The notes beneath the pieces were generated by a model. The model did not search any database, was not told where the DNA came from, and saw only the letters and a list, made by a program, of their open reading frames with translations. Positions 10,957 through 59,914 of a stretch of 59,914 nt of DNA are shown in pieces (positions within the stretch are counted from its first letter, which is position 1; every line of letters begins with the position of its first letter). The position numbers were made by a program, and so were the translations under genes. Source of the DNA: Synergistales bacterium (GTDB taxonomy: Bacteria; Synergistota; Synergistia; Synergistales; 79-D21); assembly GCA_036722335.1 (NCBI GenBank), contig DAIMJI010000001.1, positions 1 to 59,914 of the forward strand. Reading direction: 5' to 3'.

Positions 10957-11994
10957 TTGGTCGTAAGCCTTCTTTCATTCCTGCTCGTCATCGGAATCAG
11001 CGTCATCATCCACGAACTGGGCCATTTCCTGTTTTCCATCCGGTTCGGCGTGAAGGTCTACGAGTTCGCCTTCGGGATGGGCCCAGCCTTGCTGCAGAAA
11101 AGGCGAGGGGAAACCGTCTACTCCCTGCGGGCTTTCCCCATAGGCGGATTCGTCCGCCTTGCGGGCATGGAGGAGGAGCAGGAAGGGGAGAGCGCGCCCC
11201 CTGAAAGGACATACCCCTTCAAGACTCCTTCACAACGTTTCGCCATCCTTGCCGGAGGTCCCCTTTTCAACATCCTCCTGGCGATCGTCCTGACAACGGC
11301 GCTTTTGACCTTCAACGGCATCCTGGACCTCCAAAGCGCCACGGTCGGTTCGACCATGTCAGGCTACCCGGCGGAACGAATCGGCCTCATGACGGGAGAC
11401 CGCATCGTTTCGATAAACGGCAAGACCGTGACGACCTGGGATTCAATGTCCTCAACGCTGAGGCAGGCAGCCCCGGCCGGCCCTATCGAGCTTGTGGTGG
11501 ACCGAAACGGCGAAAAGAAGACCTTTTCCGTCCTGGTCGAAAAGGACAGCCGCTACGGGGTCCCCCTGCTAGGCATCAGGCCGCGCAACCTCAGGTATTC
11601 GCTTCCCGAGGCCCTGTTCAGGTCGGTGGGAACAGCCTGGGAAATGACGGTCTCTATCCTGAAGGGGCTGTGGACCTGGGCCTTCGGAAGGCAGGATGTC
11701 GAATTCGCAGGCCCTGTGGGCATCGCTTCGATGGCGGGAGATGCGGCCAGGCAGGGATGGTGGTCCTTCATATCATTCCTTGCCGTAATCAACCTGAACC
11801 TCGGGATCCTCAACCTCTTTCCATTCCCCGCGCTGGACGGGGGCCGACTCTCGTTCCTGGTCGGTGAAATGCTGACGGGACGCCGTCTCCCCGCGAAGTG
11901 GGAAAACCTTATACACCTTGCCGGCTTCGCCCTGTTGATCGCCCTTATCCTTTTCGTGACCTGGAAGGATATCCTTCGCCTCGTTCGCCCCTAG
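10957..11994 (+). CDS. rseP: RIP metalloprotease RseP
   Basis: HELGH zinc motif, PDZ-like middle region, NLFPFPALDGG. Confidence 0.93.
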   Translation: MVVSLLSFLLVIGISVIIHELGHFLFSIRFGVKVYEFAFGMGPALLQKRRGETVYSLRAFPIGGFVRLAGMEEEQEGESAPPERTYPFKTPSQRFAILAGGPLFNILLAIVLTTALLTFNGILDLQSATVGSTMSGYPAERIGLMTGDRIVSINGKTVTTWDSMSSTLRQAAPAGPIELVVDRNGEKKTFSVLVEKDSRYGVPLLGIRPRNLRYSLPEALFRSVGTAWEMTVSILKGLWTWAFGRQDVEFAGPVGIASMAGDAARQGWWSFISFLAVINLNLGILNLFPFPALDGGRLSFLVGEMLTGRRLPAKWENLIHLAGFALLIALILFVTWKDILRLVRP

Positions 11995-12014: not shown

Positions 12015-13061
12015 ATGTCGGCCAGATCCGTTACTGTAAGAGGTCTCGAGATTGGCGGGGGCAGCCCGGTCCGGGTCGAAAGCATGCTCAAGACCCCGCT
12101 TGATGATCGGCAGGGATGCTCCAGGGAGTTGCAAGGACTTGCCCAGGCAGGGTGTGAATTGGTTCGCGTCGCCTTTCCGTCGCCTTCAAATTTCGAGGAC
12201 CTCGCGGCCCTCATCTCAGACGCGGAAATCCCCATCATGGCGGACATCCATTTCGACCCCGATCTCGCCTTGCTGAGCCTCAAGGCAGGAGCGCACGCAA
12301 TCCGCATCAATCCCGGCAACATGGGAAGCCCGGAGCGCCTTTCCCAAATTTTGGAAACGGCTTCCGAGAGGAAAGCGGTTGTCCGAATTGGCGCAAACTG
12401 CGGATCCCTTTCGGGGAGTCAAGTGGCAAAGGCAAACGGAGACAGGGCTCTCGCCCTGGTCGGCGCCGTCGAGGAACAGCTTGTTTTCCTCAAAAAAAGC
12501 GGTTTCGACAACATCATCCTCTCGGCGAAATCCACCTCGATCCGTGAAACAGTCCGGGCCAACTTCCTTCTTTCCGAACGGTATCCTTATCCCCTGCACA
12601 TAGGCATCACGGAAGCGGGGCCTGGAGTGAGGGGGTTGGTAAAAAACGCTGCGGGAATAGGCATCCTCCTCAACCAGGGTATAGGCGACACGATCCGCGT
12701 CAGCCTGACCGGGCCTTCGATCAGCGAGGTCGAGGCGGGCTATTCCATACTCAATGCCCTGGAAATCCGCAGAAAAGGGTATAACCTCATCTCCTGCCCG
12801 ACATGCGGCCGGAAGAGAATCGACGTGGAAATGCTGGTCAATAGGCTCCTGCCGAGTTTTTCCCCCCTTCCCGACGGTTTCACGGTCGCGGTCATGGGAT
12901 GCGAAGTGAACGGCCCCAGGGAAGCCGCCCATGCAGACCTCGGGATTTCCGGCGCCCCTGGCGGGTTCGTCCTTTTCTCCAAGGGCAGGGTTGTCGCCAA
13001 GGCCCGGACTGAAGACCTTGAGGAAGTCATGAAATCCGCCCTGCGCGAAATTCTGGAATAA
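12015..13061 (+). CDS. ispG: (E)-4-hydroxy-3-methylbut-2-enyl-diphosphate synthase
   Basis: ADIHF, RINPGN, RIGANCGSL, HIGITEAG, CPTCGR, MGCEVNGPRE. ATG at 12015. Confidence 0.93.
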   Translation: MSARSVTVRGLEIGGGSPVRVESMLKTPLDDRQGCSRELQGLAQAGCELVRVAFPSPSNFEDLAALISDAEIPIMADIHFDPDLALLSLKAGAHAIRINPGNMGSPERLSQILETASERKAVVRIGANCGSLSGSQVAKANGDRALALVGAVEEQLVFLKKSGFDNIILSAKSTSIRETVRANFLLSERYPYPLHIGITEAGPGVRGLVKNAAGIGILLNQGIGDTIRVSLTGPSISEVEAGYSILNALEIRRKGYNLISCPTCGRKRIDVEMLVNRLLPSFSPLPDGFTVAVMGCEVNGPREAAHADLGISGAPGGFVLFSKGRVVAKARTEDLEEVMKSALREILE

Positions 13062-13145
13062 CCAATCTTAAGGTTTTGCCACGACTTCTCCCCTTAACAT
13101 AAACCTTGCTAAGGGAATACAACCTTTTTTTCTTCCGCCTATTGA

Positions 13146-13173
13146 TTGACAGAGGGGGGGGGACCGTTATAAT
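13146..13173 (+). promoter_or_regulatory. Consensus sigma70 promoter TTGACA-N16-TATAAT with a G9 tract in the spacer
   Basis: TTGACA at 13146-13151, TATAAT at 13168-13173, G run at 13154-13162. Confidence 0.85.
13154..13162. repeat. Homopolymer G9
   Basis: Nine consecutive G, read directly from the sequence. Confidence 0.9.
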
Positions 13174-13232
13174 GAGTTTCGCCCCTGTCCCGAGGCCAAA
13201 ACGGGATCAAATGCCTGTGAAGGAGGACCCCC

Positions 13233-13715
13233 ATGATGATTGAAACACCAGAACTGTACACCCTGGTCGTGGGAAAAGGAGAAGGAGAAAAAAAGCTGAC
13301 CGCTTTCGATGCGGCGCTCCTGGAGGCCGGTGTAGGCAACATGAATCTCCTGAGGGTATCAAGCGTGCTGCCGCCGCGATGCCAGTTCGTTCCAAGAATG
13401 GATATGCCTTTCGGCAGCCTTTTGCCGATTGCTTACGGGTCCATCTCCAGTGACGTCCCAGGTGAGAGGATAGCCGCCGCGATAGGAGTGGGAGTCCCGG
13501 AAGATCCGGCAAGTTTTGGAATGATCATGGAATATTCCGGTTTCTGTTCCGCCGATGAAGCCGCCCGCAAGGTGGAGGAAATGGTTCGCGAAGCCTTCGA
13601 GATGAGGAAGCTTTCCCTCAAGGAAGTCAAGGTGAAGGCTGTTGACCACGTTGTGGAGCAGTGCGGCAGCGTTTTTGCGGGCTGCCCGCTTTTCTACCGG
13701 CAGGAAGGAGAATAA
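13233..13715 (+). CDS. pdaD: Pyruvoyl-dependent arginine decarboxylase
   Basis: TAFDAALLEAGVGNMNLLRVSSVLPP with the Ser-Ser autocleavage site; GMIMEYSG. Confidence 0.9.
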   Translation: MMIETPELYTLVVGKGEGEKKLTAFDAALLEAGVGNMNLLRVSSVLPPRCQFVPRMDMPFGSLLPIAYGSISSDVPGERIAAAIGVGVPEDPASFGMIMEYSGFCSADEAARKVEEMVREAFEMRKLSLKEVKVKAVDHVVEQCGSVFAGCPLFYRQEGE

Positions 13716-13723
13716 CCTCTTTC

Positions 13724-14581
13724 ATGGAACCGATGGCACGGCGTGAAACGGACCTGTGGTTTACGGAGTACCAAACCCCGGATATGAGGCTGGGGCTCAG
13801 GATCAGCGACATCCTGCTCAACGTCCAGACCCCCTTCCAGCATTTGCTGGTCGTGGAAACGGAGCAGTACGGTAATCTCATGGCTCTTGACGGGGCCATC
13901 ATGGTCACTGAGAAGGACGAATTCACCTATCACGAGATGATGAGCCATATCGCGATGTGCTCCCATCCCGCACCACGCCGGGTTCTAGTCGTCGGCGGGG
14001 GAGACGGCGGCATCGTCAGGGAACTTGTCAGGTACGAAATCCTCGAGAAGGCGACACTCGTCGACATCGACGAACAGGTTATCGAAGCTTCCCGAAGGTT
14101 TTTCCCTTCGATCAGCAGCGCCCTGGATCACCCGAAAGTCGAGGTCCGTCCGATGGACGCCCTTGTCTACATCAAGGACCACCAGGACGAGTTTGACGTC
14201 ATCATCGTGGACAGCACGGATCCGGTCGATTTCGCCGCAGGGCTTTTTGAAGAAGCCTTTTTCCGGGATGTCCACAAGGCTTTGCGCAAGGACGGAATGG
14301 TGGTTTCACAAACGGAGTCCCCGATGGGACACCCCGATATCCTAAGGACAGCGTACCGGGAAATGAAAAAAGTCTTCCCCGTCGTCGAACTTTGCTGGGG
14401 AATCATGCCGACCTACCCGACCGGCTCCTGGACATACACGATCGCCTCGAAACTCCACGATCCCCGAAAGCCCTTGCGACAGGCGCCAAAGGGGACCCGT
14501 TACTATTCTTCAAGGATCCACGAGGCGTGCTTCGTCCTGCCCCCATTCCTCGAAGGAATCCTCCAGGAAGGACAAGAATAG
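13724..14581 (+). CDS. speE: Polyamine aminopropyltransferase
   Basis: WFTE, LDG, DEFTYHEM, VVGGGDGG, VDIDE, DSTDP. Start 13724 or 13733. Confidence 0.92.
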   Translation: MEPMARRETDLWFTEYQTPDMRLGLRISDILLNVQTPFQHLLVVETEQYGNLMALDGAIMVTEKDEFTYHEMMSHIAMCSHPAPRRVLVVGGGDGGIVRELVRYEILEKATLVDIDEQVIEASRRFFPSISSALDHPKVEVRPMDALVYIKDHQDEFDVIIVDSTDPVDFAAGLFEEAFFRDVHKALRKDGMVVSQTESPMGHPDILRTAYREMKKVFPVVELCWGIMPTYPTGSWTYTIASKLHDPRKPLRQAPKGTRYYSSRIHEACFVLPPFLEGILQEGQE

Positions 14582-14583
14582 GC

Positions 14584-15426
14584 GTGACCCGCTTTATCTG
14601 CAGTTCCCCGAGACTGGAAGAATCGAAGTGGGTCCTCCTTGGGATTCCAATGGATTTCACCGTCTCCCGGAAAGCAGGAAGCAGATTCGGCCCGGAATCT
14701 ATCCGGGCCGAATCCCATAACCTGGAAACCTATAGCCCCTCGCTTGGCCTTGACCTTTCAGAAGTCTCCTTCTACGACCTCGAGGACATCAGTTTCCCTT
14801 ACGGGGATGTCCGGTCAGCCCTCGAGACGATCGAACTCGTTTCGAAGCGCTTTTTCACGCGCGGAAGGCGTCTCTGCAGCCTGGGTGGAGAGCACCTGGT
14901 ATCCTTGCCACTGATCAAGTCCGCTTCTTCCGTCTGGCCGGACCTTAGGGTCATCCATTTCGACGCTCACGCGGACCTTCGCACATGCCTTCGCGGGGGG
15001 ACCCTGAGCCATTCGTCCGTCATGCGCCATGTCGCGACCTCCTGCCTTGGCGAAACAGGAAGGCTTTACCAATTCGGGATCAGATCCGGCTGCGCGGAGG
15101 AAATGGAGTGGGGCAGGCAAAACACGAACCTCTTCCCCTTCGATGTACTCGAACCCCTAAACCGTTGCCTCGAAGAAATCAGGAGCTATCCGGTCTACCT
15201 TTCAATCGACATCGATGTCGTCGATCCCTCGGGAGCCCCTGGAACCGGAACCCCCGAAGCCGGGGGAATTTCCTCGAGGGAACTCCTTGAAGCCCTTCAC
15301 AGCCTTAAAGGACTCGACATTGTCGGGTTCGACGTGGTCGAGGTTGCCCCGGACCTCGACGTGAACAATATCACGTCAGCCCTGGCCGCGAAATGCGTGA
15401 GGGAACTCCTGATCCAGCTGAACTAG
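14584..15426 (+). CDS. speB: Agmatinase / ureohydrolase
   Basis: GSRFGP, GGEHL, HFDAHAD, SIDIDVVDP..APGTG, DVVEVAP. GTG start. Confidence 0.9.
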   Translation: MTRFICSSPRLEESKWVLLGIPMDFTVSRKAGSRFGPESIRAESHNLETYSPSLGLDLSEVSFYDLEDISFPYGDVRSALETIELVSKRFFTRGRRLCSLGGEHLVSLPLIKSASSVWPDLRVIHFDAHADLRTCLRGGTLSHSSVMRHVATSCLGETGRLYQFGIRSGCAEEMEWGRQNTNLFPFDVLEPLNRCLEEIRSYPVYLSIDIDVVDPSGAPGTGTPEAGGISSRELLEALHSLKGLDIVGFDVVEVAPDLDVNNITSALAAKCVRELLIQLN

Positions 15427-15511: not shown

Positions 15512-16753
15512 ATGGGCAACGGGACCAGCGGTTTTTTTGTGTCTTCGGAAGTCGGGCGACTGAAGCGCGTGATGCTCCATCGGCCTGGTAAGGAATTGGA
15601 AAGGCTCACGATCGACAACAAGGACGAGCTCCTGTTCGACGATATCCTTTGGGTCGAGGAAGCGCAGAAGGAACACGACGCGTACGCGGACCTCCTCCGG
15701 GACAATGGCGTGGAGGTTGTTTATTTCCGGAATTGCCTGGCTCATGTCCTGAGGGAAGAGGAAATCCGTTCCATGCTGCTCGATGAGGTTCTGGCCTGGG
15801 AAGCCCTGGATTACCCTCTTTCGTGCGCCCTCAAGGCCGAGATGATGGAAGTGCCTTCTCCCGAACTGGCGGAAATCCTCACCGGGGGAATCACCAAGGG
15901 GGAAGCCCAAAAACTCCTGGGCAACTGCCAAAGCCTGGTACTGAACACGCTCGCGAGCCATGAACTGCTGATACGCCCCCTTCCCAACCTCTACTTCCAG
16001 AGAGATCCCTATTCCTTTGTCAAGAACGGGGTCATCATCAGCGTGATGAGCTTCGACGCCAGGCAGAGGGAACCCATATATGCCCGCTACATCTTCAAGT
16101 ACCATCCCTATTTCAAGGACGTGAAGATCTACTTCGGCGAGGACCGGCTCGACAGCATTCCCTACTGCATCGAGGGCGGTGATTTCCATGTCTTTTCCGA
16201 GGACACGGTTGCCATAGGAATCAGCCAGCGCACAAACGCCGGTGCCGTCCAGATCGTTGGCCGAAGGCTCGCCAAGGAAGCCGGGATCAGGACCGTACTG
16301 GCGGTCGATATCCCGAAGCATCGATCCTACATGCACCTGGACACGGTTTTTACCATGGTCGACTGGGACGCCTTCACCATCTTCCCAGGCGTGGAGGACA
16401 GGATCCGGGTCTGGGAACTCGGCTACGACGAAGATGGGAACCTCGTCCGCATCGATGAAAGCCGGAACCTGGTGGATACCCTCAAGAGGTCTCTCCACCT
16501 CGACCAGGTTCGCCTCATCGAGACCGGGGGAGGAGATCCCGTCCTGGCTGCACGTGACCAGTGGAATGACGGCACGAACACGTTCTCGATCGCTCCCGGG
16601 GTTGTTGTCACATACCGCCGCAATGTCGTTTCCAACACCGTGTTGCGGGAAAACGGGATCAAGGTTTACGAAATCCGAGGTGCGGAGCTGGGAAGAGGGC
16701 GTGGCGGCCCAAGATGCATGAGCATGCCGCTCGAGAGGGAACCACGCGCGTAA
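15512..16753 (+). CDS. arcA: Arginine deiminase
   Basis: SEVGRLKRVMLHRPG, LLFDD, PNLYFQRD, IEGGD, MHLDTV, ELGRGRGGPRCMSMP (catalytic Cys). Confidence 0.95.
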   Translation: MGNGTSGFFVSSEVGRLKRVMLHRPGKELERLTIDNKDELLFDDILWVEEAQKEHDAYADLLRDNGVEVVYFRNCLAHVLREEEIRSMLLDEVLAWEALDYPLSCALKAEMMEVPSPELAEILTGGITKGEAQKLLGNCQSLVLNTLASHELLIRPLPNLYFQRDPYSFVKNGVIISVMSFDARQREPIYARYIFKYHPYFKDVKIYFGEDRLDSIPYCIEGGDFHVFSEDTVAIGISQRTNAGAVQIVGRRLAKEAGIRTVLAVDIPKHRSYMHLDTVFTMVDWDAFTIFPGVEDRIRVWELGYDEDGNLVRIDESRNLVDTLKRSLHLDQVRLIETGGGDPVLAARDQWNDGTNTFSIAPGVVVTYRRNVVSNTVLRENGIKVYEIRGAELGRGRGGPRCMSMPLEREPRA

Positions 16754-16786
16754 GCCATAATTCAAAATAGCAGAGGAGGAAGAAAA

Positions 16787-17731
16787 ATGCCCGTGAACCT
16801 GAAAGGACGCAGTTTTCTTACGTTGAAGGATTTCACCCCGGAGGAGATCGGATTTCTCCTGCAGCTTTCCATGGACCTGAAAACCAAGAAGCGCATGGGA
16901 ATAAAGGGGAATTCCCTTGCAGGCAAGAATATCGCCCTTATCTTCGAAAAACCGTCCACCCGGACGCGATGCGCCTTTACCGTGGCTTGCGTCGACGAGG
17001 GAGCACACCCCGAGTACCTCGGCAAGAACGACATCCAGCTCGGCCACAAGGAAGACGTCAAGGACACGGCCCGGGTCCTAGGCCGCATGTTCGACGGAAT
17101 CGAATTCCGGGGCTTCAAGCAGAGCGTCGTGGAAGAGTTGGCCTGCTACAGCGGCGTCCCGGTATGGAACGGGTTGACCGATGCCTACCACCCGACCCAG
17201 ATTCTCGCCGACTTCCTGACGATACAGGAAAACTTCGGACGCCTTAAGGGTATTCGCCTGGTCTACTGCGGGGATGGCCGAAACAACATGGCCAACTCCC
17301 TTATGATCGGATCTGCCAAAATGGGACTCCATTTCGCCATCGCCGCTCCCAAGTCCCTTTGGCCGGAATCCGAGCTCGTCGCGACCTGCAAGGCCATCGC
17401 GGCCGAAACCGGAGCCACCATCGAGTTTACGGAAGATGCCATGGCTGCAGTAAAGGGCGCCGACGCAATCTATACCGATGTCTGGGCTTCAATGGGGGAA
17501 GAGGACAAGATGGCCGAACGGGTAGCCCTCCTTTCTCCCTACCAGGTCAATGCCGGCCTCATGGCGGCAACCGGCAAGGAGGAATCGATCTTCCTGCATT
17601 GCCTGCCCGCGGTGAAGGGAAAGGAAGTCACCGAAGACGTTTTCGAGTCGAGGAATTCAAAAGTCTTTGACGAGGCGGAGAACCGCCTGCACACAATCAA
17701 GGCCGTAATGGTCGCCACCCTGGGGAACTGA
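16787..17731 (+). CDS. argF: Ornithine carbamoyltransferase, likely catabolic (ArcB)
   Basis: KPSTRTR, WNGLTD..HPTQ, SMG loop, HCLP, AENRLH. Confidence 0.92.
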
Positions 17732-17803: not shown

Positions 17804-18211
17804 TCAGATAGGAGGCAGGAGGCTCGGAAGCCCCACCTTGATGCACCCGAGGGAAGAGGCCGCTTCCACGAAGCGATGGATATCCCGGGTCGACCCCTTC
17901 AGCAAGACCACTTCCATGCAGGTATGATGGTCGATATGGACATGGGTCGTACAGACGATCGATTCACCGAAATCGTGCTGCAGGCGAGTGATCTCACGAC
18001 TTGAATCCCTGCTGTGGTGATCATAGGAAAAAGTGAAGGTTCCATAGGTCTCGCCTTCCTGGCCTTCCCACATTGCCTGCCCGATATAGTCCCTGATGAT
18101 CTGCCTAAGCGCATCGGAACGGTTTTTCAAATTTTTTTCCTCGATCCACCGGTCAAATTCCCTGACCAGTGATTCGGGCATCGAGACGCTGAAACGGACC
18201 ATTTCCTCCAT
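17804..18211 (-). CDS. nikR: Nickel-responsive transcriptional regulator NikR family
   Basis: RFSVSMP...NRSDALR ribbon-helix-helix; YDHH, THVH, TCMEV metal ligands. ATG at 18211 with GGAGGTG RBS. Confidence 0.9.
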   Translation of the reverse strand: MEEMVRFSVSMPESLVREFDRWIEEKNLKNRSDALRQIIRDYIGQAMWEGQEGETYGTFTFSYDHHSRDSSREITRLQHDFGESIVCTTHVHIDHHTCMEVVLLKGSTRDIHRFVEAASSLGCIKVGLPSLLPPI

Positions 18212-18251
18212 CGCGGTTGCACCTCCGTATCCAGGAAAGGAGAGGAATTCC

Positions 18252-19049
18252 ATGCCGAGCTTCAATGCTGCGATCATCCAGATGAACAGCACGCCGGACT
18301 CACCGGCGGAGATCGTGTCCCAGCTTGAAAACCGGCTTGCCGGCTTGCCCGACGGCTTGTCCCTTGTCATCTTACCAGAACTTTGGACAGTTTCCGGATT
18401 TGACGAAACTCTCCCCGGAAAAGCCTCCTGCAGCCCCGAAATTCTTCGGAAACTTTCGGAATGGGCAAGGACACGCCTTTGCGCTGTCCATTGCGGCAGC
18501 TTGCCGTGGAAGGAAAACGGCAGACTTTACAACCGGACGTTTTTCGTTGGGGAGACCGGGACGACTCTTTCAACCTACGATAAGGCCCACTTGATTCCCA
18601 TGATGAACGAAACCTGTTTTTTCAAGGCCGGGGAAGGACCCTCCCTTTTCCTGTGGAGGGGAATTGTTTGCGGAAACGCGACCTGTTACGACATCCGTTT
18701 CCCCGAGTACATCCGCGGAATTGCCCTCGCGGGAGCCCACATCCTGCTAATCCCGGCGGCATGGCCGGAAAGCAGGCTTAAGCACTGGAGAATCCTTCTG
18801 CAGGCCAGGGCAATCGAGAACCAGGTCTTCCTCCTTGCCTGCAACCGCAGCGGGACCTCGGGAGGAACGGCATTTGGCGGACACTCGATGGCCATTGCCC
18901 CCGATGGGACCATCCTTTCGGAAGCGGGGACAGGAGACGAGACTCTCATCGTGGAAATCGACCCCACGAGGGTTGACTGCGTTCGCAAGGAATTCCCGGT
19001 CCTTGAAAGCCGCCGTCGTTCCCTCTATTCCCTTGTTTCCGCGATTTAA
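18252..19049 (+). CDS. Carbon-nitrogen hydrolase (nitrilase family, YafV/Nit-like amidase)
   Basis: Glu-Lys-Cys triad: LPELW, YDKAHL, TCYDIRFPE; also RAIENQ. Confidence 0.9.
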   Translation: MPSFNAAIIQMNSTPDSPAEIVSQLENRLAGLPDGLSLVILPELWTVSGFDETLPGKASCSPEILRKLSEWARTRLCAVHCGSLPWKENGRLYNRTFFVGETGTTLSTYDKAHLIPMMNETCFFKAGEGPSLFLWRGIVCGNATCYDIRFPEYIRGIALAGAHILLIPAAWPESRLKHWRILLQARAIENQVFLLACNRSGTSGGTAFGGHSMAIAPDGTILSEAGTGDETLIVEIDPTRVDCVRKEFPVLESRRRSLYSLVSAI

Positions 19050-19142
19050 AGGCCAGGGACCCTTGGCTTGAGAGGCCGTCGCGAATGGACGATATGCTAG
19101 AATATTCCTGGTTTTAACCTTTTGTGCCAGGAGAAGTGACCC

Positions 19143-19898
19143 ATGCCAAGTATTTACCGCAATCCCTCGATCCTGCTCGAATCCATCGAAAACTGGCTTG
19201 AAGCAAAACTTCGCTCCTCGGGCAACAAGGGCGGCATTGTCGGCCTTAGTGGAGGAATCGATTCGGCTGTCGTTGCTGCGATCCTGAACCGGGTATGCGG
19301 GAAAAGGATGATGACGGTCATCATGCCCTGCCATAGCAATCCCCAGGATCGTCTGGACGCTGAACTGGTCGTGCGGCGTTTCGGGCTTCCCAGCGTTGTT
19401 GTCGACCTCACGGAAGCTTATGATTCCATGCTGAAGGCGCTCCCCCCGCCCGAGGGAACCGCAGGCCAGATGGCCAGGGCCAACTTAAAGCCCCGCCTTA
19501 GGATGAACACCCTGTACTTTCTTGCCCAGCAAGGGGGCTTCCTGGTTTGCGGCACGGGTAACCGGGTCGAGTTGACCGTAGGTTATTTCACGAAATACGG
19601 GGATTCGGGCGTTGACCTCCTCCCGCTCGGGGACCTGCTCAAGGGAGAAGTCAGGTCGCTGGCCAGTCTTCTCGAGATTCCAGCTCCTGTCATCGATAAG
19701 CCTCCCTCCGCCGGCCTTTGGCAAGGCCAGACCGATGAAGGGGAAATGGGAGTGACTTACGAGGAGCTGGACCGCTATATCGCGCGCGGTGAAGGCCACG
19801 AAAAAGTCAGGGAGTTCGTGGAATCCTCCCGGGCCCGTTCCGAGCACAAGCGAAGCACTCCGCCGATCTGCCGTATAGGCTTAACGAAACAAGCATGA
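19143..19898 (+). CDS. nadE: NH3-dependent NAD+ synthetase
   Basis: GLSGGIDSA, NLKPRLRM, GYFTKYGD, KPPSAGLW.GQTDE; no glutaminase domain. Confidence 0.93.
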   Translation: MPSIYRNPSILLESIENWLEAKLRSSGNKGGIVGLSGGIDSAVVAAILNRVCGKRMMTVIMPCHSNPQDRLDAELVVRRFGLPSVVVDLTEAYDSMLKALPPPEGTAGQMARANLKPRLRMNTLYFLAQQGGFLVCGTGNRVELTVGYFTKYGDSGVDLLPLGDLLKGEVRSLASLLEIPAPVIDKPPSAGLWQGQTDEGEMGVTYEELDRYIARGEGHEKVREFVESSRARSEHKRSTPPICRIGLTKQA

Positions 19899-21803: not shown

Positions 21804-22843
21804 ACCCCGAAAAGGAACGCCTTGTCGAACCCCCCAGGATACCGGGCGAAACCGACAATCAGTCCCTTCGGCCGCAAAGGCTTGGCGAGTTCATCGGCCA
21901 GAGGTCCCTCAGGGAGAAGTTGAGGATCTATATCGACGCAGCCCGCATGAGGAAGGAGCCCCTTGACCACCTGCTTTTTTTTGGTCCTCCGGGCCTTGGC
22001 AAGACAACGCTCGCCGGGATCATCGCAAACGAAATGTCCGGGAACCTTAAAGTGACGACCGGCCCCGCGCTGGAAAGAGCGGGAGACCTGGCGGCACTCC
22101 TTTCGAACCTGCAGCCCGGAGACGTCCTTTTTATCGATGAGATCCATCGCCTTTCCCCAAACGTAGAAGAGATCCTTTACCCGTCCATGGAGGATTTCTC
22201 CCTCGATATCGTCGTCGGAAAGGGACCTTTCGCGAGGAGCATACGGCTCAGCCTTCCTCCCTTTACGCTGATCGGCGCGACAACACGACTTGGACTTTTG
22301 ACCTCGCCCTTGAGGGCCCGCTTTGGGATCGTCGAGCAACTCGACCTTTACTGCCCGGATGAACTTGCCGAGATCGTCCTGCGAGGGGCCGGTGTCTTGA
22401 ATATCGACGTCCAGCCTGCCGCTGCGATGGAAATCGCCCTGAGATCCAGGGGAACGCCTCGGGTTGCCATAAGGCTGCTCAAGCGCGTAAGGGATGTTGC
22501 CGCAGTCGGCAATCGTTCCTCAATTGACGCTGGCCTGGCCAAGAGCGCCCTTGAAATGCTTTCCATCGATCATTCCGGGCTTGACGAGGGAGACAGGAAG
22601 CTCCTTCGGGCGCTCATCGAACTGTTCTCGGGAGGACCTGTCGGGCTCGCCACCCTTGCGGCGGCGCTGAACGAGGAACAGCAAACAGTCGAAGACATCT
22701 ACGAACCTTTCCTGATCAGGAAGGGGCTAATCGAAAGGACACCCAGGGGGAGAAGGGCCACCCCATCCGCCTTCGAATACCTCGGCCTCGCCGCTCCCGC
22801 AGGATACGGCAGGCAGATCGGCCTTCTCGAAGGACTCGAATGA
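21800..22843 (+). CDS. ruvB: Holliday junction helicase RuvB
   Basis: [43 protein letters not shown]. Confidence 0.96.
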
Positions 22844-57743: not shown

Positions 57744-58934
57744 CTAACCTTGGAGGTACGGTTCTATCCCCGGTAGCGGAAGCCCTTCGAAGAACTCGAG
57801 GCTGGCTCCACCCCCGGTGGAAACATGGGTAACCTGGTCACCGAAACCCAATTGGTTAACCGCGGCAGCGGTGTCTCCGCCACCAACCACTGTTAGGCAG
57901 CCCGACTTCGTGGCCACGGCAAGGCTAGCGGCTACCTCCCGTGTCCCTTTCTCAAACAAGGGTTTTTCAAAGACGCCCATCGGGCCATTCCAGAGCACGG
58001 TCGCCGACTTTTCTATCACCCTTGAGAAGGCTTTTATCGATGCGGGGCCAATATCCAATCCCATCAGATCCTCGGGGATGTTCCCGGACTGGACGGTTTC
58101 CACAGGTCCTTCCGACTCGATGGAAACGGCCGCAACGATGTCCTCCGGCAAGAGAATGCGGAGGCCCTTTGAGTCGGCTTTTGCCATCAACTCCCGCGCA
58201 AAGTCGATGCGGTCTTCCTCGACAAGCGATTTCCCTACCTGCAGGCCCTGTGCCTTGAGGAACGTGAACGCCATTCCCCCCCCGATAAGGATGGAATCCA
58301 CACGTTCGATCAGCTGGCCGATGACTCCGATCTTGTCCGATACCTTTGCCCCGCCGAGAATCAAGGTGAAAGGGCGCTTGGGGTTATCCCTGACCTGCCC
58401 CAGGATCTCCACTTCACGGCATAGGAGTTTCCCCGCGTATGAGGGCAGGAACCCGGTAATCGCCTGTGTAGAAGCGTGCGCACGATGGGCCGCGCTAAAC
58501 GCATCCATGACAAACACTTCAAAGGGATCCGCGAGAAGCCGCGCGAATGCGGGATCGTTCTTTTCCTCTTCCGGGTGGAACCGGACATTCTCAAGAACGA
58601 GGATCGAGTTTGGGCGAGCGGTTGAAACCGCCTCGGATACGGCAGGCCCCGTCGATTCCTCCACAAACCCCACATCCCAGCCTGTCAGCTCCTCCAGGCG
58701 GTATGCCGCGGGCCGCAGTGAGAATTCCGGGGAAATCTTGCCTTTCGGCCTGCCCAGGTGGGAAACCAGCGTAATTCGCGCTCCAGCCTCCCTCAGGCAA
58801 TTAAGGGTATCCAGGTGGGCAAGGATCCGGGTGTCGTCCGCAACGACCCCGCCGCGAAGCGGAACATTGAAATCCACACGGACAAGGACCCTTTTCCCTT
58901 CAAGGCCTTTATCTGGCAAGCCCTTGAGTTTCAT
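57744..58934 (-). CDS. pgk: Phosphoglycerate kinase
   Basis: RVDFNVP, SHLGRP, LENVRF, GGAKVSDKI, WNGPMGVFE, GGGDT, STGGGASLE. ATG at 58934. Confidence 0.96.
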   Translation of the reverse strand: MKLKGLPDKGLEGKRVLVRVDFNVPLRGGVVADDTRILAHLDTLNCLREAGARITLVSHLGRPKGKISPEFSLRPAAYRLEELTGWDVGFVEESTGPAVSEAVSTARPNSILVLENVRFHPEEEKNDPAFARLLADPFEVFVMDAFSAAHRAHASTQAITGFLPSYAGKLLCREVEILGQVRDNPKRPFTLILGGAKVSDKIGVIGQLIERVDSILIGGGMAFTFLKAQGLQVGKSLVEEDRIDFARELMAKADSKGLRILLPEDIVAAVSIESEGPVETVQSGNIPEDLMGLDIGPASIKAFSRVIEKSATVLWNGPMGVFEKPLFEKGTREVAASLAVATKSGCLTVVGGGDTAAAVNQLGFGDQVTHVSTGGGASLEFFEGLPLPGIEPYLQG

Positions 58935-58935
58935 C

Positions 58936-59914
58936 CTAGAGCCCCCTGGAAGCCACCATGTTGGCCAGGTCGACGACCCTGCAGCTATAGCCCCATTCGT
59001 TGTCGTACCAGGACAGGACCTTCGCGAGATTGCCAACCGCCATCGTTTGGGAAGGATCGAAAAGGGACGACGAACTGTTGCCCATAAAATCAATTGACAC
59101 CAATTCTTCATCGACGATGGACAGTATGCCTTTCATGGGGCCTTCCGCCCATCGCCGCATGGCCGTGTTGATTTCCTCAGGGCTGGCATCTCGCCCAAGG
59201 ACCGCGGTCAGGTCGACAATGGAAACATCGGGGGTCGGGACTCGAAGGGCGATGCCGTTAAGCTTGCCCTTGAGTTCCGGGATAACCCTCCCGATCGCCT
59301 TCGCCGCCCCGGTCGTCGTGGGAACGATGGATAGCGCAGCCGAACGCCCCCTGCGGCGGTCCTTGTGGGTGTGGTCCAGGATGCTCTGGTCGCTTGTGTA
59401 GGCATGGGCTGTTGTCATGAGCCCTTTCTCGATCCCGAACTCCTCCTGGAGAACCTTCGCCACCGGGGCCAGGCAGTTTGTCGTGCAGGAGGCGCAGGAA
59501 AGGACATGGTGGTTTTCGTGGTCGTAATCCCCTTCGTTGACCCCCATAACGATGGTGCAGTCGTCATCCTTGCCCGGCGCGGTGATGATAACCTTCTTGG
59601 CCCCGGCTTTGAGGTGAAGGCCTGCTCCTGCCTTGTCCCTGTATTTACCTGTCGCCTCGATGACGATATCCACGCCTGCCGATTTCCAGTCGATTTTCTC
59701 CGGGTTCGGTTCCGCGAACACCTTGACCGGGCTCCCGTCGATTATGATTGCATCCCCGGAGGCTTCAACGCTTCCCGGAAAAGTCCTGTGGACCGAATCG
59801 TACTTGAAGAGATATGCAAGGTCTTCCACCGGAACCGGTTTGTGGTTTATCGCGGCAATTTCGATCAGCCCTGCATGGCTGTGCTGGAAGAGGGATCTCA
59901 GTGTCAGTCGCCCG
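58936..59914 (-). CDS. gap: Type I glyceraldehyde-3-phosphate dehydrogenase (5' end outside the window)
   Basis: The frame stays open to the window edge (GRLTLRSLFQ...INHKP...YLFKYDSVH). ASCTTNCLAP, PTTTGAAKA, WYDNEWGYS. Confidence 0.96.
   Translation of the reverse strand, partial: GRLTLRSLFQHSHAGLIEIAAINHKPVPVEDLAYLFKYDSVHRTFPGSVEASGDAIIIDGSPVKVFAEPNPEKIDWKSAGVDIVIEATGKYRDKAGAGLHLKAGAKKVIITAPGKDDDCTIVMGVNEGDYDHENHHVLSCASCTTNCLAPVAKVLQEEFGIEKGLMTTAHAYTSDQSILDHTHKDRRRGRSAALSIVPTTTGAAKAIGRVIPELKGKLNGIALRVPTPDVSIVDLTAVLGRDASPEEINTAMRRWAEGPMKGILSIVDEELVSIDFMGNSSSSLFDPSQTMAVGNLAKVLSWYDNEWGYSCRVVDLANMVASRGL

Follow-up and report, generated by a model that had tools for sequence, protein, structure and literature searches.

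An uncultured Synergistaceae/Synergistales bacterium, as its related loci identify it, carries a pair of perfect promoter hexamers before its polyamine operon pdaD-speE-speB, and the 16-nt spacer between them contains a run of nine Gs. We consider it likely, with a probability of roughly 0.7, that in this species the sequence is a conserved promoter of fixed spacing and not a length switch. Comparison with orthologous loci suggests that it is most likely an ordinary, strong sigma-A-type promoter whose G·C-rich 16-nt spacer has been selected and is unusually conserved. The initial annotation had proposed that slippage in the G tract makes the operon phase variable, but the evidence for this species points away from phase variation: the tract was G9 in all 15 conspecific assemblies, and its relatives preserve the spacing of the hexamers while the tract itself changes by substitution. 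Length variants do occur at longer tracts in three sister species, and these are considered separately below.

A perfect promoter match around the longest homopolymer of the window

Direct reading bore out the starting observation of perfect TTGACA and TATAAT hexamers 16 nt apart with nine Gs in the spacer (Table 1). Promoters of the sigma-70/sigma-A type have near-consensus hexamers 16–18 nt apart, and here the match is 12/12. It was the sole match of a consensus scan in 11–16 kb of the window, by which we mean the whole 59,914-nt stretch of DNA analysed, and TTGACA-N15-19-TATAAT occurs just once on both strands of that window, with 0.01 occurrences expected from 100 dinucleotide-preserving shuffles. 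Just two other intergenic sites in the window reach 10/12, which is too few to set a norm for spacers.

The G9 tract, described initially as the longest G run, is in fact longer than every other homopolymer in the window, whatever the base, the runners-up being T8 at 21975 and C8 at 58276. It lies between the two hexamers, the arrangement of simple-repeat tracts in promoters of the phase-variable type. By itself the run is statistically unremarkable, as a first-order Markov model predicts about three G/C runs of at least 9 nt per window (probability of one or more, 0.94). Chance does not account for the perfect promoter, for where the run falls within it, or for the conservation of both at orthologous loci. 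Under the same model, G/C runs of at least 7 nt are depleted in this one window (11 observed versus 29 expected). The second-longest of them, at 58276–58283, reads as C8 on the plus strand and as G8 in the coding sequence of a pgk-like gene (57744–59111, minus strand), so that a core glycolytic gene tolerates a long G run. Depleted long runs and a G8 in pgk are unlike a genome rich in contingency loci, as far as one 60-kb window can represent it. The pgk tract is also a possible internal control homopolymer for read-level error rates.

Table 1. Promoter elements, conserved blocks and genes at the pdaD locus (positions are those of the window; G clade, the group of relatives with G-rich spacers).
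Feature	Position	Strand	Evidence and remarks
Conserved upstream box CCCTTAACATAA	13091..13102	+	About -90 to -79; 8/12 positions invariant in 11 sequences
T7 run (13125-13131) then CCGCC (13135-13139)	13125..13139	+	T-rich block at about -55 to -49, near-invariant in the G clade
-35 hexamer TTGACA (6/6)	13146..13151	+	Direct reading and consensus scan
16-nt spacer GAGGGGGGGGGACCGT	13152..13167	+	Direct reading
G9 homopolymer inside spacer	13154..13162	+	Direct reading
-10 hexamer TATAAT (6/6), no TG extension	13168..13173	+	Direct reading and consensus scan
Discriminator and predicted initial transcribed block GAGTTTCGCCC	13174..13184	+	G-RR-TTTCGCCC invariant in the G clade
Leader segment TCCCG-N9-CGGGA	13188..13206	+	Conserved in sequence; RNA structure unsupported
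Shine-Dalgarno GGAGG	13222..13226	+	6 nt before the ATG at 13233; AAGGAGG invariant in alignment
pdaD, pyruvoyl-dependent arginine decarboxylase	13233..13715	+	TIGR00286, 150.9 bits (cutoff 106.95); PF01862
speE, polyamine aminopropyltransferase (spermidine synthase)	13724..14581	+	NF002010, 338.9 bits (cutoff 260)
speB, agmatinase family ureohydrolase	14584..15426	+	TIGR01230, 279.7 bits (cutoff 174.3)

The polyamine operon and its neighbourhood

All three genes score above their curated NCBIfam cutoffs, and they are closely packed, with 8 nt between pdaD and speE and 2 nt between speE and speB; from the end of the -10 hexamer to the pdaD ATG there are 59 nt. Upstream lie dxr, rseP and ispG, whose stop codon occupies 13059–13061. 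Directly downstream of the operon (15512–17731 and 18096–19898) arcA and an ornithine carbamoyltransferase gene, with no carbamate kinase gene adjacent to them, are followed by genes for a nitrilase-family amidohydrolase and nadE. Elsewhere the window carries ordinary chromosomal genes (hutU, hutI, tldD, ftsK, one for an FPP synthase, dxs, recN, obg, pgk). No tRNA genes were found in the window and no mismatch-repair genes either, the latter saying nothing of the rest of the genome. There is no SAM decarboxylase gene (speD/speH) beside speE, and the substrate of this SpeE may be putrescine or agmatine; SpeE acts on agmatine in some thermophiles.

Between ispG and the promoter we found no terminator-like site. 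The T7 run at 13125 was considered as a terminator tail and rejected, as no GC-rich hairpin precedes it in any of the species. With no terminator here, part of the expression of the operon may be read-through transcription.

A side observation concerns annotation. On identical DNA the start of ispG has been called variously at 11898, 12015 or 12084 (end 13061; 325, 348 or 387 residues), so that an exact-protein look-up with one start misses the contigs annotated with another.

Conservation of the promoter in Synergistota

We sampled relatives by a genome scan, a flank-anchored variable-gap scan of metagenome contigs and further look-ups, and could read 77 alleles in all, spread over more than 15 species of Synergistota, with about 60 of the assemblies coming from relatives. 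Both hexamers are perfect in 16 readable Synergistota species genomes, over PdaD identities from 95% down to 68%, and the promoter, with its exact 16-nt spacing and a G·C-rich spacer block, is conserved in at least three named lineages (Synergistaceae, Thermovirgaceae and Acetomicrobium). TTGACA is identical in all species of the G clade and of a more distant clade with C runs (the C clade), with TTGACG in one lineage, and TATAAT is invariant at every Synergistota locus read. The distance from promoter to start codon is similar throughout (41–59 nt, 85 in one), as is the gene order rseP-ispG-pdaD-speE-speB. The pdaD loci of Bacillota are without this promoter. Placed and oriented as it is before a gene with a ribosome-binding site, and conserved in orthologues, the hexamer pair is very probably a real sigma-A-type promoter of pdaD-speE-speB, and on this point the initial annotation, which had assigned it to the polyamine operon, is supported. 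Judging from the position of the -10 hexamer, 6–8 nt downstream of which promoters of this type start transcription, the predicted start site lies at about 13180–13182.

One Synergistales lineage (P0018) has TTGACG-16-TATAAT about 60–90 nt upstream of pdaD, with a spacer of mixed sequence and no homopolymer, uniform in eight assemblies. There the promoter and its 16-nt spacing have outlived the tract. Separately, two metagenome-assembled genomes labelled Aneurinibacillus and Betaproteobacteria carry near-identical DNA 175 nt upstream of pdaD, and this likeness across phylum labels suggests binning contamination or very recent transfer.

Tract length within the species

By looking up exact matches to the proteins PdaD (with 160 or 159 residues), IspG and SpeE, we obtained conspecific loci from 14 independent samples: four JGI metagenomes, eight Logan assemblies (SRR23004075, SRR23004076, SRR28427294, SRR29340343, ERR15912041, ERR15912053, ERR15912065 and ERR15912079) and the ENA assemblies ERZ724084 and ERZ925090. 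Together with the window these make 15 assemblies, and the consensus sequence had G9 and a 16-nt spacer in every one. A C/A SNP at 13090 divides them into two haplotypes, both of them G9. Contingency loci are recognized by indel polymorphism of the tract between strains (PMC5084427), and at the consensus level we saw none. The initial annotation had itself named an invariant tract length across strains as grounds for giving up phase variability, and invariance is what the consensus assemblies revealed. Minority alleles are hidden in such assemblies, and low-frequency subpopulations with G8 or G10 may exist in this species.

Spacing and tract across relatives

The conserved quantity becomes clearer when relatives are compared. 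Among the 77 alleles the spacer is 16 nt in 73, 15 nt in four and 17 nt in none, although the sequences that fill it differ. The spacer of this species has the form GA-G9-ACCGT, and other 16-nt forms are GA-G9-CCCGG, GA-G10-CCGG, G9-T-G-ACCGT, G4-A-G6-TCCGA, G11-ACCGT (with one 15-nt G10 allele) and G11-TCCGA (with three 15-nt G10 alleles). In the more distant clade a C7 or C8 directly follows the -35 hexamer, further loci have C5 or C6, and three to four lineages have no run at all; in each case the spacer is again 16 nt. From the T-rich block to +15 the G-clade sequences align without gaps, and the spacers differ by substitution within a 16-column frame (position 2, A/G; 5, G/A; 10, G/T; 12, any base; 16, T/A/G). 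A gapless frame with point substitutions implies that spacing, not tract length, is what has been conserved. The pattern expected of a contingency locus, in which the spacing of the hexamers varies while the purity of the tract is maintained, was not seen.

These data also bear on a specific prediction, that G10 would yield an 'optimal' 17-nt spacer. They contradict it: species with G10 or G11 keep 16 nt through substitutions in the flanks. Uninterrupted runs of at least 9 nt are nevertheless present in seven of about 11 G-clade species, and their persistence could reflect selection for mutability.

In one assembly (GCA_002432945.1, DJHE01000002.1) the sequence about 60–85 nt upstream of pdaD has an NN scaffold gap directly after a G10 tract and lacks about 24 nt, the -10 hexamer among them; the homopolymer is where this assembly broke.

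One-base losses at the longest tracts

The four alleles with 15-nt spacers all have G10 where the tract is otherwise G11, and they come from three sister species. In the first, two G10 contigs (L061 and L065) stand against seven conspecific G11 contigs. In the second, a single G10 record (found twice, as L006 and L067) stands against five G11 contigs. In the third, a G10 contig (L036) is matched by one G11 contig (L010), from which it differs by one further 7-nt indel over 2.5 kb. For L061, L065 and L006/L067 no indel besides that of the tract occurs in the 1.3–1.7 kb common to the conspecific contigs (a comparison that included L059, L062 and L063), and between L067 and both L068 and L070 the tract indel is the sole difference of any kind. 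Contigs with G10 and with G11 are present within the same studies.

By assemblies, one-base losses were found in four of 17 (24%) at G11 tracts versus none of 26 at G9 or G10 tracts (Fisher p=0.019). The G11 tract is thus a length-dependent, site-specific indel hot spot, biological or technical. The G10 alleles may be products of true slippage or of homopolymer miscalling during library preparation, sequencing or assembly; PCR and library steps are known to inflate homopolymer indels and to be a source of false ones (PMC4240813). The 545-kb contig that carries L006 may come from a long-read assembly. The proposal of a tract of variable length is unsupported for the G9 of this species, and what speaks in its favour is the indels (4/17), real or artefactual, at the longest (G11) tracts of its sister species. 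Stable G9 and G10 tracts beside a G11 tract with 24% one-base losses also offer a calibration of how far the homopolymer lengths in metagenome assemblies can be trusted.

Phase variation or fixed spacing

According to the phase-variation model, gain or loss of a base in the G tract by slipped-strand mispairing would shift the spacing of the hexamers and spread the expression of pdaD-speE-speB over the population, as a switch or a rheostat. Several observations speak for it. The length and position of the tract are suitable, long unbroken runs persist in many related species, and the G10/15-nt alleles in four of 17 assemblies from G11 species are specific to the tract, setting apart even contigs that are identical in all else and recurring inside individual studies. 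Neisseria and Treponema pallidum typically show variation in G/C tracts of at least 8 nt (PMC5084427; PMC7864442), and in a near-clonal T. pallidum isolate the G9 promoter tract of tprL was 81% G9 and 19% G8 (PMC7864442).

Against this stands the absence of length variants in the 15 assemblies of this species and in all 26 with G9 or G10 tracts, while those at G11 could be homopolymer miscalls (PMC4240813). No allele has the 17-nt spacer that is supposed to be optimal, and the tract differs between species by substitutions at constant spacing. The interrupted G4AG6 form is stable in at least three species with its other Gs still conserved, and the three to four lineages without a tract keep the promoter and its 16-nt spacing. 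Moreover, with no terminator after ispG, a change of spacer could not produce a true OFF state. We therefore consider phase variation unlikely at this promoter; what probability we leave to a real slippage rheostat is owed mostly to the G11/G10 alleles of the sister species. Our literature search yielded no account of phase variation by simple repeats in Synergistetes. If the model were true, simple-repeat switching would extend from the surface antigens of host-adapted pathogens to core biosynthesis in environmental anaerobes, and a rheostat here would be a contingency locus over core metabolism in a non-pathogenic, uncultured phylum.

A related model would combine the two ideas, with a poly(dG·dC) block selected in the pdaD promoters of Synergistota that acts as a slippage rheostat from about 11 bases onwards; G11 and G10 alleles, with their 16- and 15-nt spacers, would then lower polyamine synthesis in a subpopulation of the cells of anaerobic communities, and the G9 of this species would be a stabler member of the series. 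This too seems improbable to us. More generally, finding a long homopolymer between promoter hexamers does not justify a call of phase variation unless it is accompanied by data on length polymorphism.

Conservation of the spacer sequence and a possible role for it

If the length of the tract is not what matters, its composition might be. In an alignment of 11 G-clade sequences from about eight species, 12 of the 16 spacer columns are invariant, a conservation equal to that of the hexamers themselves; nine of 11 G positions are among them, as is the CCG of columns 13–15. Over the intergenic alignment columns average 79% identity, and those far upstream and in the leader loop are scrambled. Two further comparisons indicate what has been retained. 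In the G4AG6 form, uniform in 14 assemblies and stable in at least three species, the run is broken and every other G is kept; since the A abolishes hypermutability and the remaining Gs persist, G-richness and not mutability appears to be conserved. In the sister clade a C7 or C8 occupies the same place on the same strand, which fits a property of the G·C duplex better than strand-specific recognition. We argue from these comparisons that the selected feature would be a G·C-rich duplex block beside the -35 hexamer, as opposed to mutability or a strand-specific motif.

The preferred reading, a fixed-spacing promoter, would then run as follows. The operon would be served by a housekeeping sigma-70/sigma-A promoter with consensus hexamers, a T-rich UP-like block upstream and a 16-nt spacing held by selection; the G run would belong to a G·C-rich block next to the -35 hexamer, kept by selection on its sequence. 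The conservation of 16 nt suggests that this may be the optimum spacing for the RNA polymerase of Synergistota. One-base losses, seen only in sister species whose tracts reach G11, would be a by-product of tract length, by slippage or miscalling, and not its purpose.

What the block might do can be approached by analogy. In E. coli, GC-rich spacers make a promoter require negative supercoiling and shift its expression to exponential growth (PMC8695583). Spacers of 16 nt form a distinct class, which includes all rrn and most tRNA promoters and responds to supercoiling in its own way (PMC9303308), and sigma-70 senses the spacer's sequence as well as its conformation (PMC3130263). We tentatively suggest that the poly(dG·dC) block and the 16-nt spacing tune binding and opening at a promoter that is otherwise 'too perfect', an idea to which we give somewhat less than even odds. 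Such tuning would make the promoter dependent on negative supercoiling and hence on growth state, thereby coupling polyamine synthesis to growth, and a strong, growth-coupled promoter would suit that pathway. A perfect promoter with an exact 16-nt spacing and a G·C block is in any case a natural test case for spacer tuning outside E. coli.

The flanks of the promoter hold other conserved elements (Table 1). The T-rich block is, by its position, a candidate UP element. The box CCCTTAACATAA is possibly a regulator site, the columns around it being barely alignable in the same 11 sequences. Together with TAAGGG (13110–13115) it makes up an inverted repeat in this species, which is not the case in relatives. 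A riboswitch or attenuator in the leader was rejected: no Rfam family matched anywhere in the window at gathering thresholds, the 4-bp consensus stem shows no compensatory changes, and the fold energy of the leader as a single sequence is no better than that of shuffles (z=+0.96). Also set aside were pairing of the G run with a C5 before the start codon, as relatives do not conserve the C5 and the predicted start site falls downstream of the run, and an operator GATAT-N4-ATATC around the -10 hexamer, which occurs in the C clade and the tract-less lineages and is absent from the window's sequence.

The conserved columns could alternatively mark where a trans-acting regulator binds, perhaps one that responds to arginine or polyamines, with the G·C block, possibly together with the CCG and the CCCTTAACATAA box, serving as a putative target for repression or activation. 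The 12 invariant spacer columns, the additional box and a conserved block at +1 to +5 would fit such a site, and the operon adjoins arcA and the ornithine carbamoyltransferase gene, arginine-catabolic genes that are typical targets of arginine regulators. However, the spacer in the window shows no palindromic or direct-repeat operator architecture, and we recognized no ARG-box-like sequence by eye. Poly-C on the same strand in the sister clade and unrelated spacers in three to four lineages ill fit one sequence-specific protein, and no regulator gene lies beside the operon, the nearest being a YebC/PmpR-family gene 4.5 kb downstream. Overall we regard a regulator site as quite unlikely to account for the block.

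The remaining alternative, a neutral relic in which a chance run in a GC-rich genome fills 16 positions and is conserved through close kinship alone, has in its favour the roughly three long G/C runs expected from composition, the lineages that lack any run, and the generally weak constraint on spacer sequence in sigma-70 promoters (PMC3130263), but it is very unlikely given that neighbouring intergenic columns are scrambled in the very species where nine of 11 G positions are invariant, that an independent C7/C8 run arose at the same place in a more distant clade, and that real long G/C runs are two- to threefold below Markov expectation, so that their retention is not the default.

Comparison with known promoters

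The closest formal parallel is porA of Neisseria meningitidis, where likewise a G homopolymer of about 9–11 nt sits in a sigma-70-type spacer and one-base slippage would change the spacing (PMC7864442). In porA and in tp0126 of T. pallidum, poly-G lies in the spacer that separates the -35 hexamer from the -10, and expression is optimal at 17 nt (PMC7864442), and loci of this type are defined by tract polymorphism between strains and heterogeneity within clones (PMC5084427; PMC7864442). The porA tract accordingly varies between strains and within cultures, whereas here G9 is constant in 15 assemblies, the 16-nt spacing is conserved and a 17-nt spacer was never seen. The products differ as well, porA encoding a surface antigen and the present operon cytoplasmic biosynthetic enzymes.

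The tp0126 and tpr promoters of T. pallidum share with this one a poly-G tract within the promoter, between the two hexamers in tp0126, in a moderately GC-rich genome (PMC7864442). There, however, 76% of 17 tested poly-G tracts of at least 8 nt were heterogeneous within isolates (PMC7864442), whereas no heterogeneity was found here between consensus assemblies. In Neisseria opc, too, the core promoter contains a G·C homopolymer, but its poly-C overlaps the -35 region and probably acts through a regulator (PMC7864442), while the -35 hexamer of pdaD is intact and invariant.

A different kind of likeness is to the rrn P1/P2 and tRNA promoters of E. coli, which the pdaD promoter resembles in the 16-nt length of its spacer, in hexamers close to consensus, in T/A-rich sequence where an UP element would lie and, very probably, in being strong. 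The hallmark of the rrn promoters is a GC-rich discriminator between -10 and +1; at pdaD, in contrast, GAGTTTC forms the discriminator and it is the spacer that is rich in GC. The likeness may be a working resemblance and is no claim of membership. On sequence grounds we would not file the pdaD promoter among phase-variable loci, and describe it instead as a putative sigma-A promoter with an unusually conserved homopolymeric spacer.
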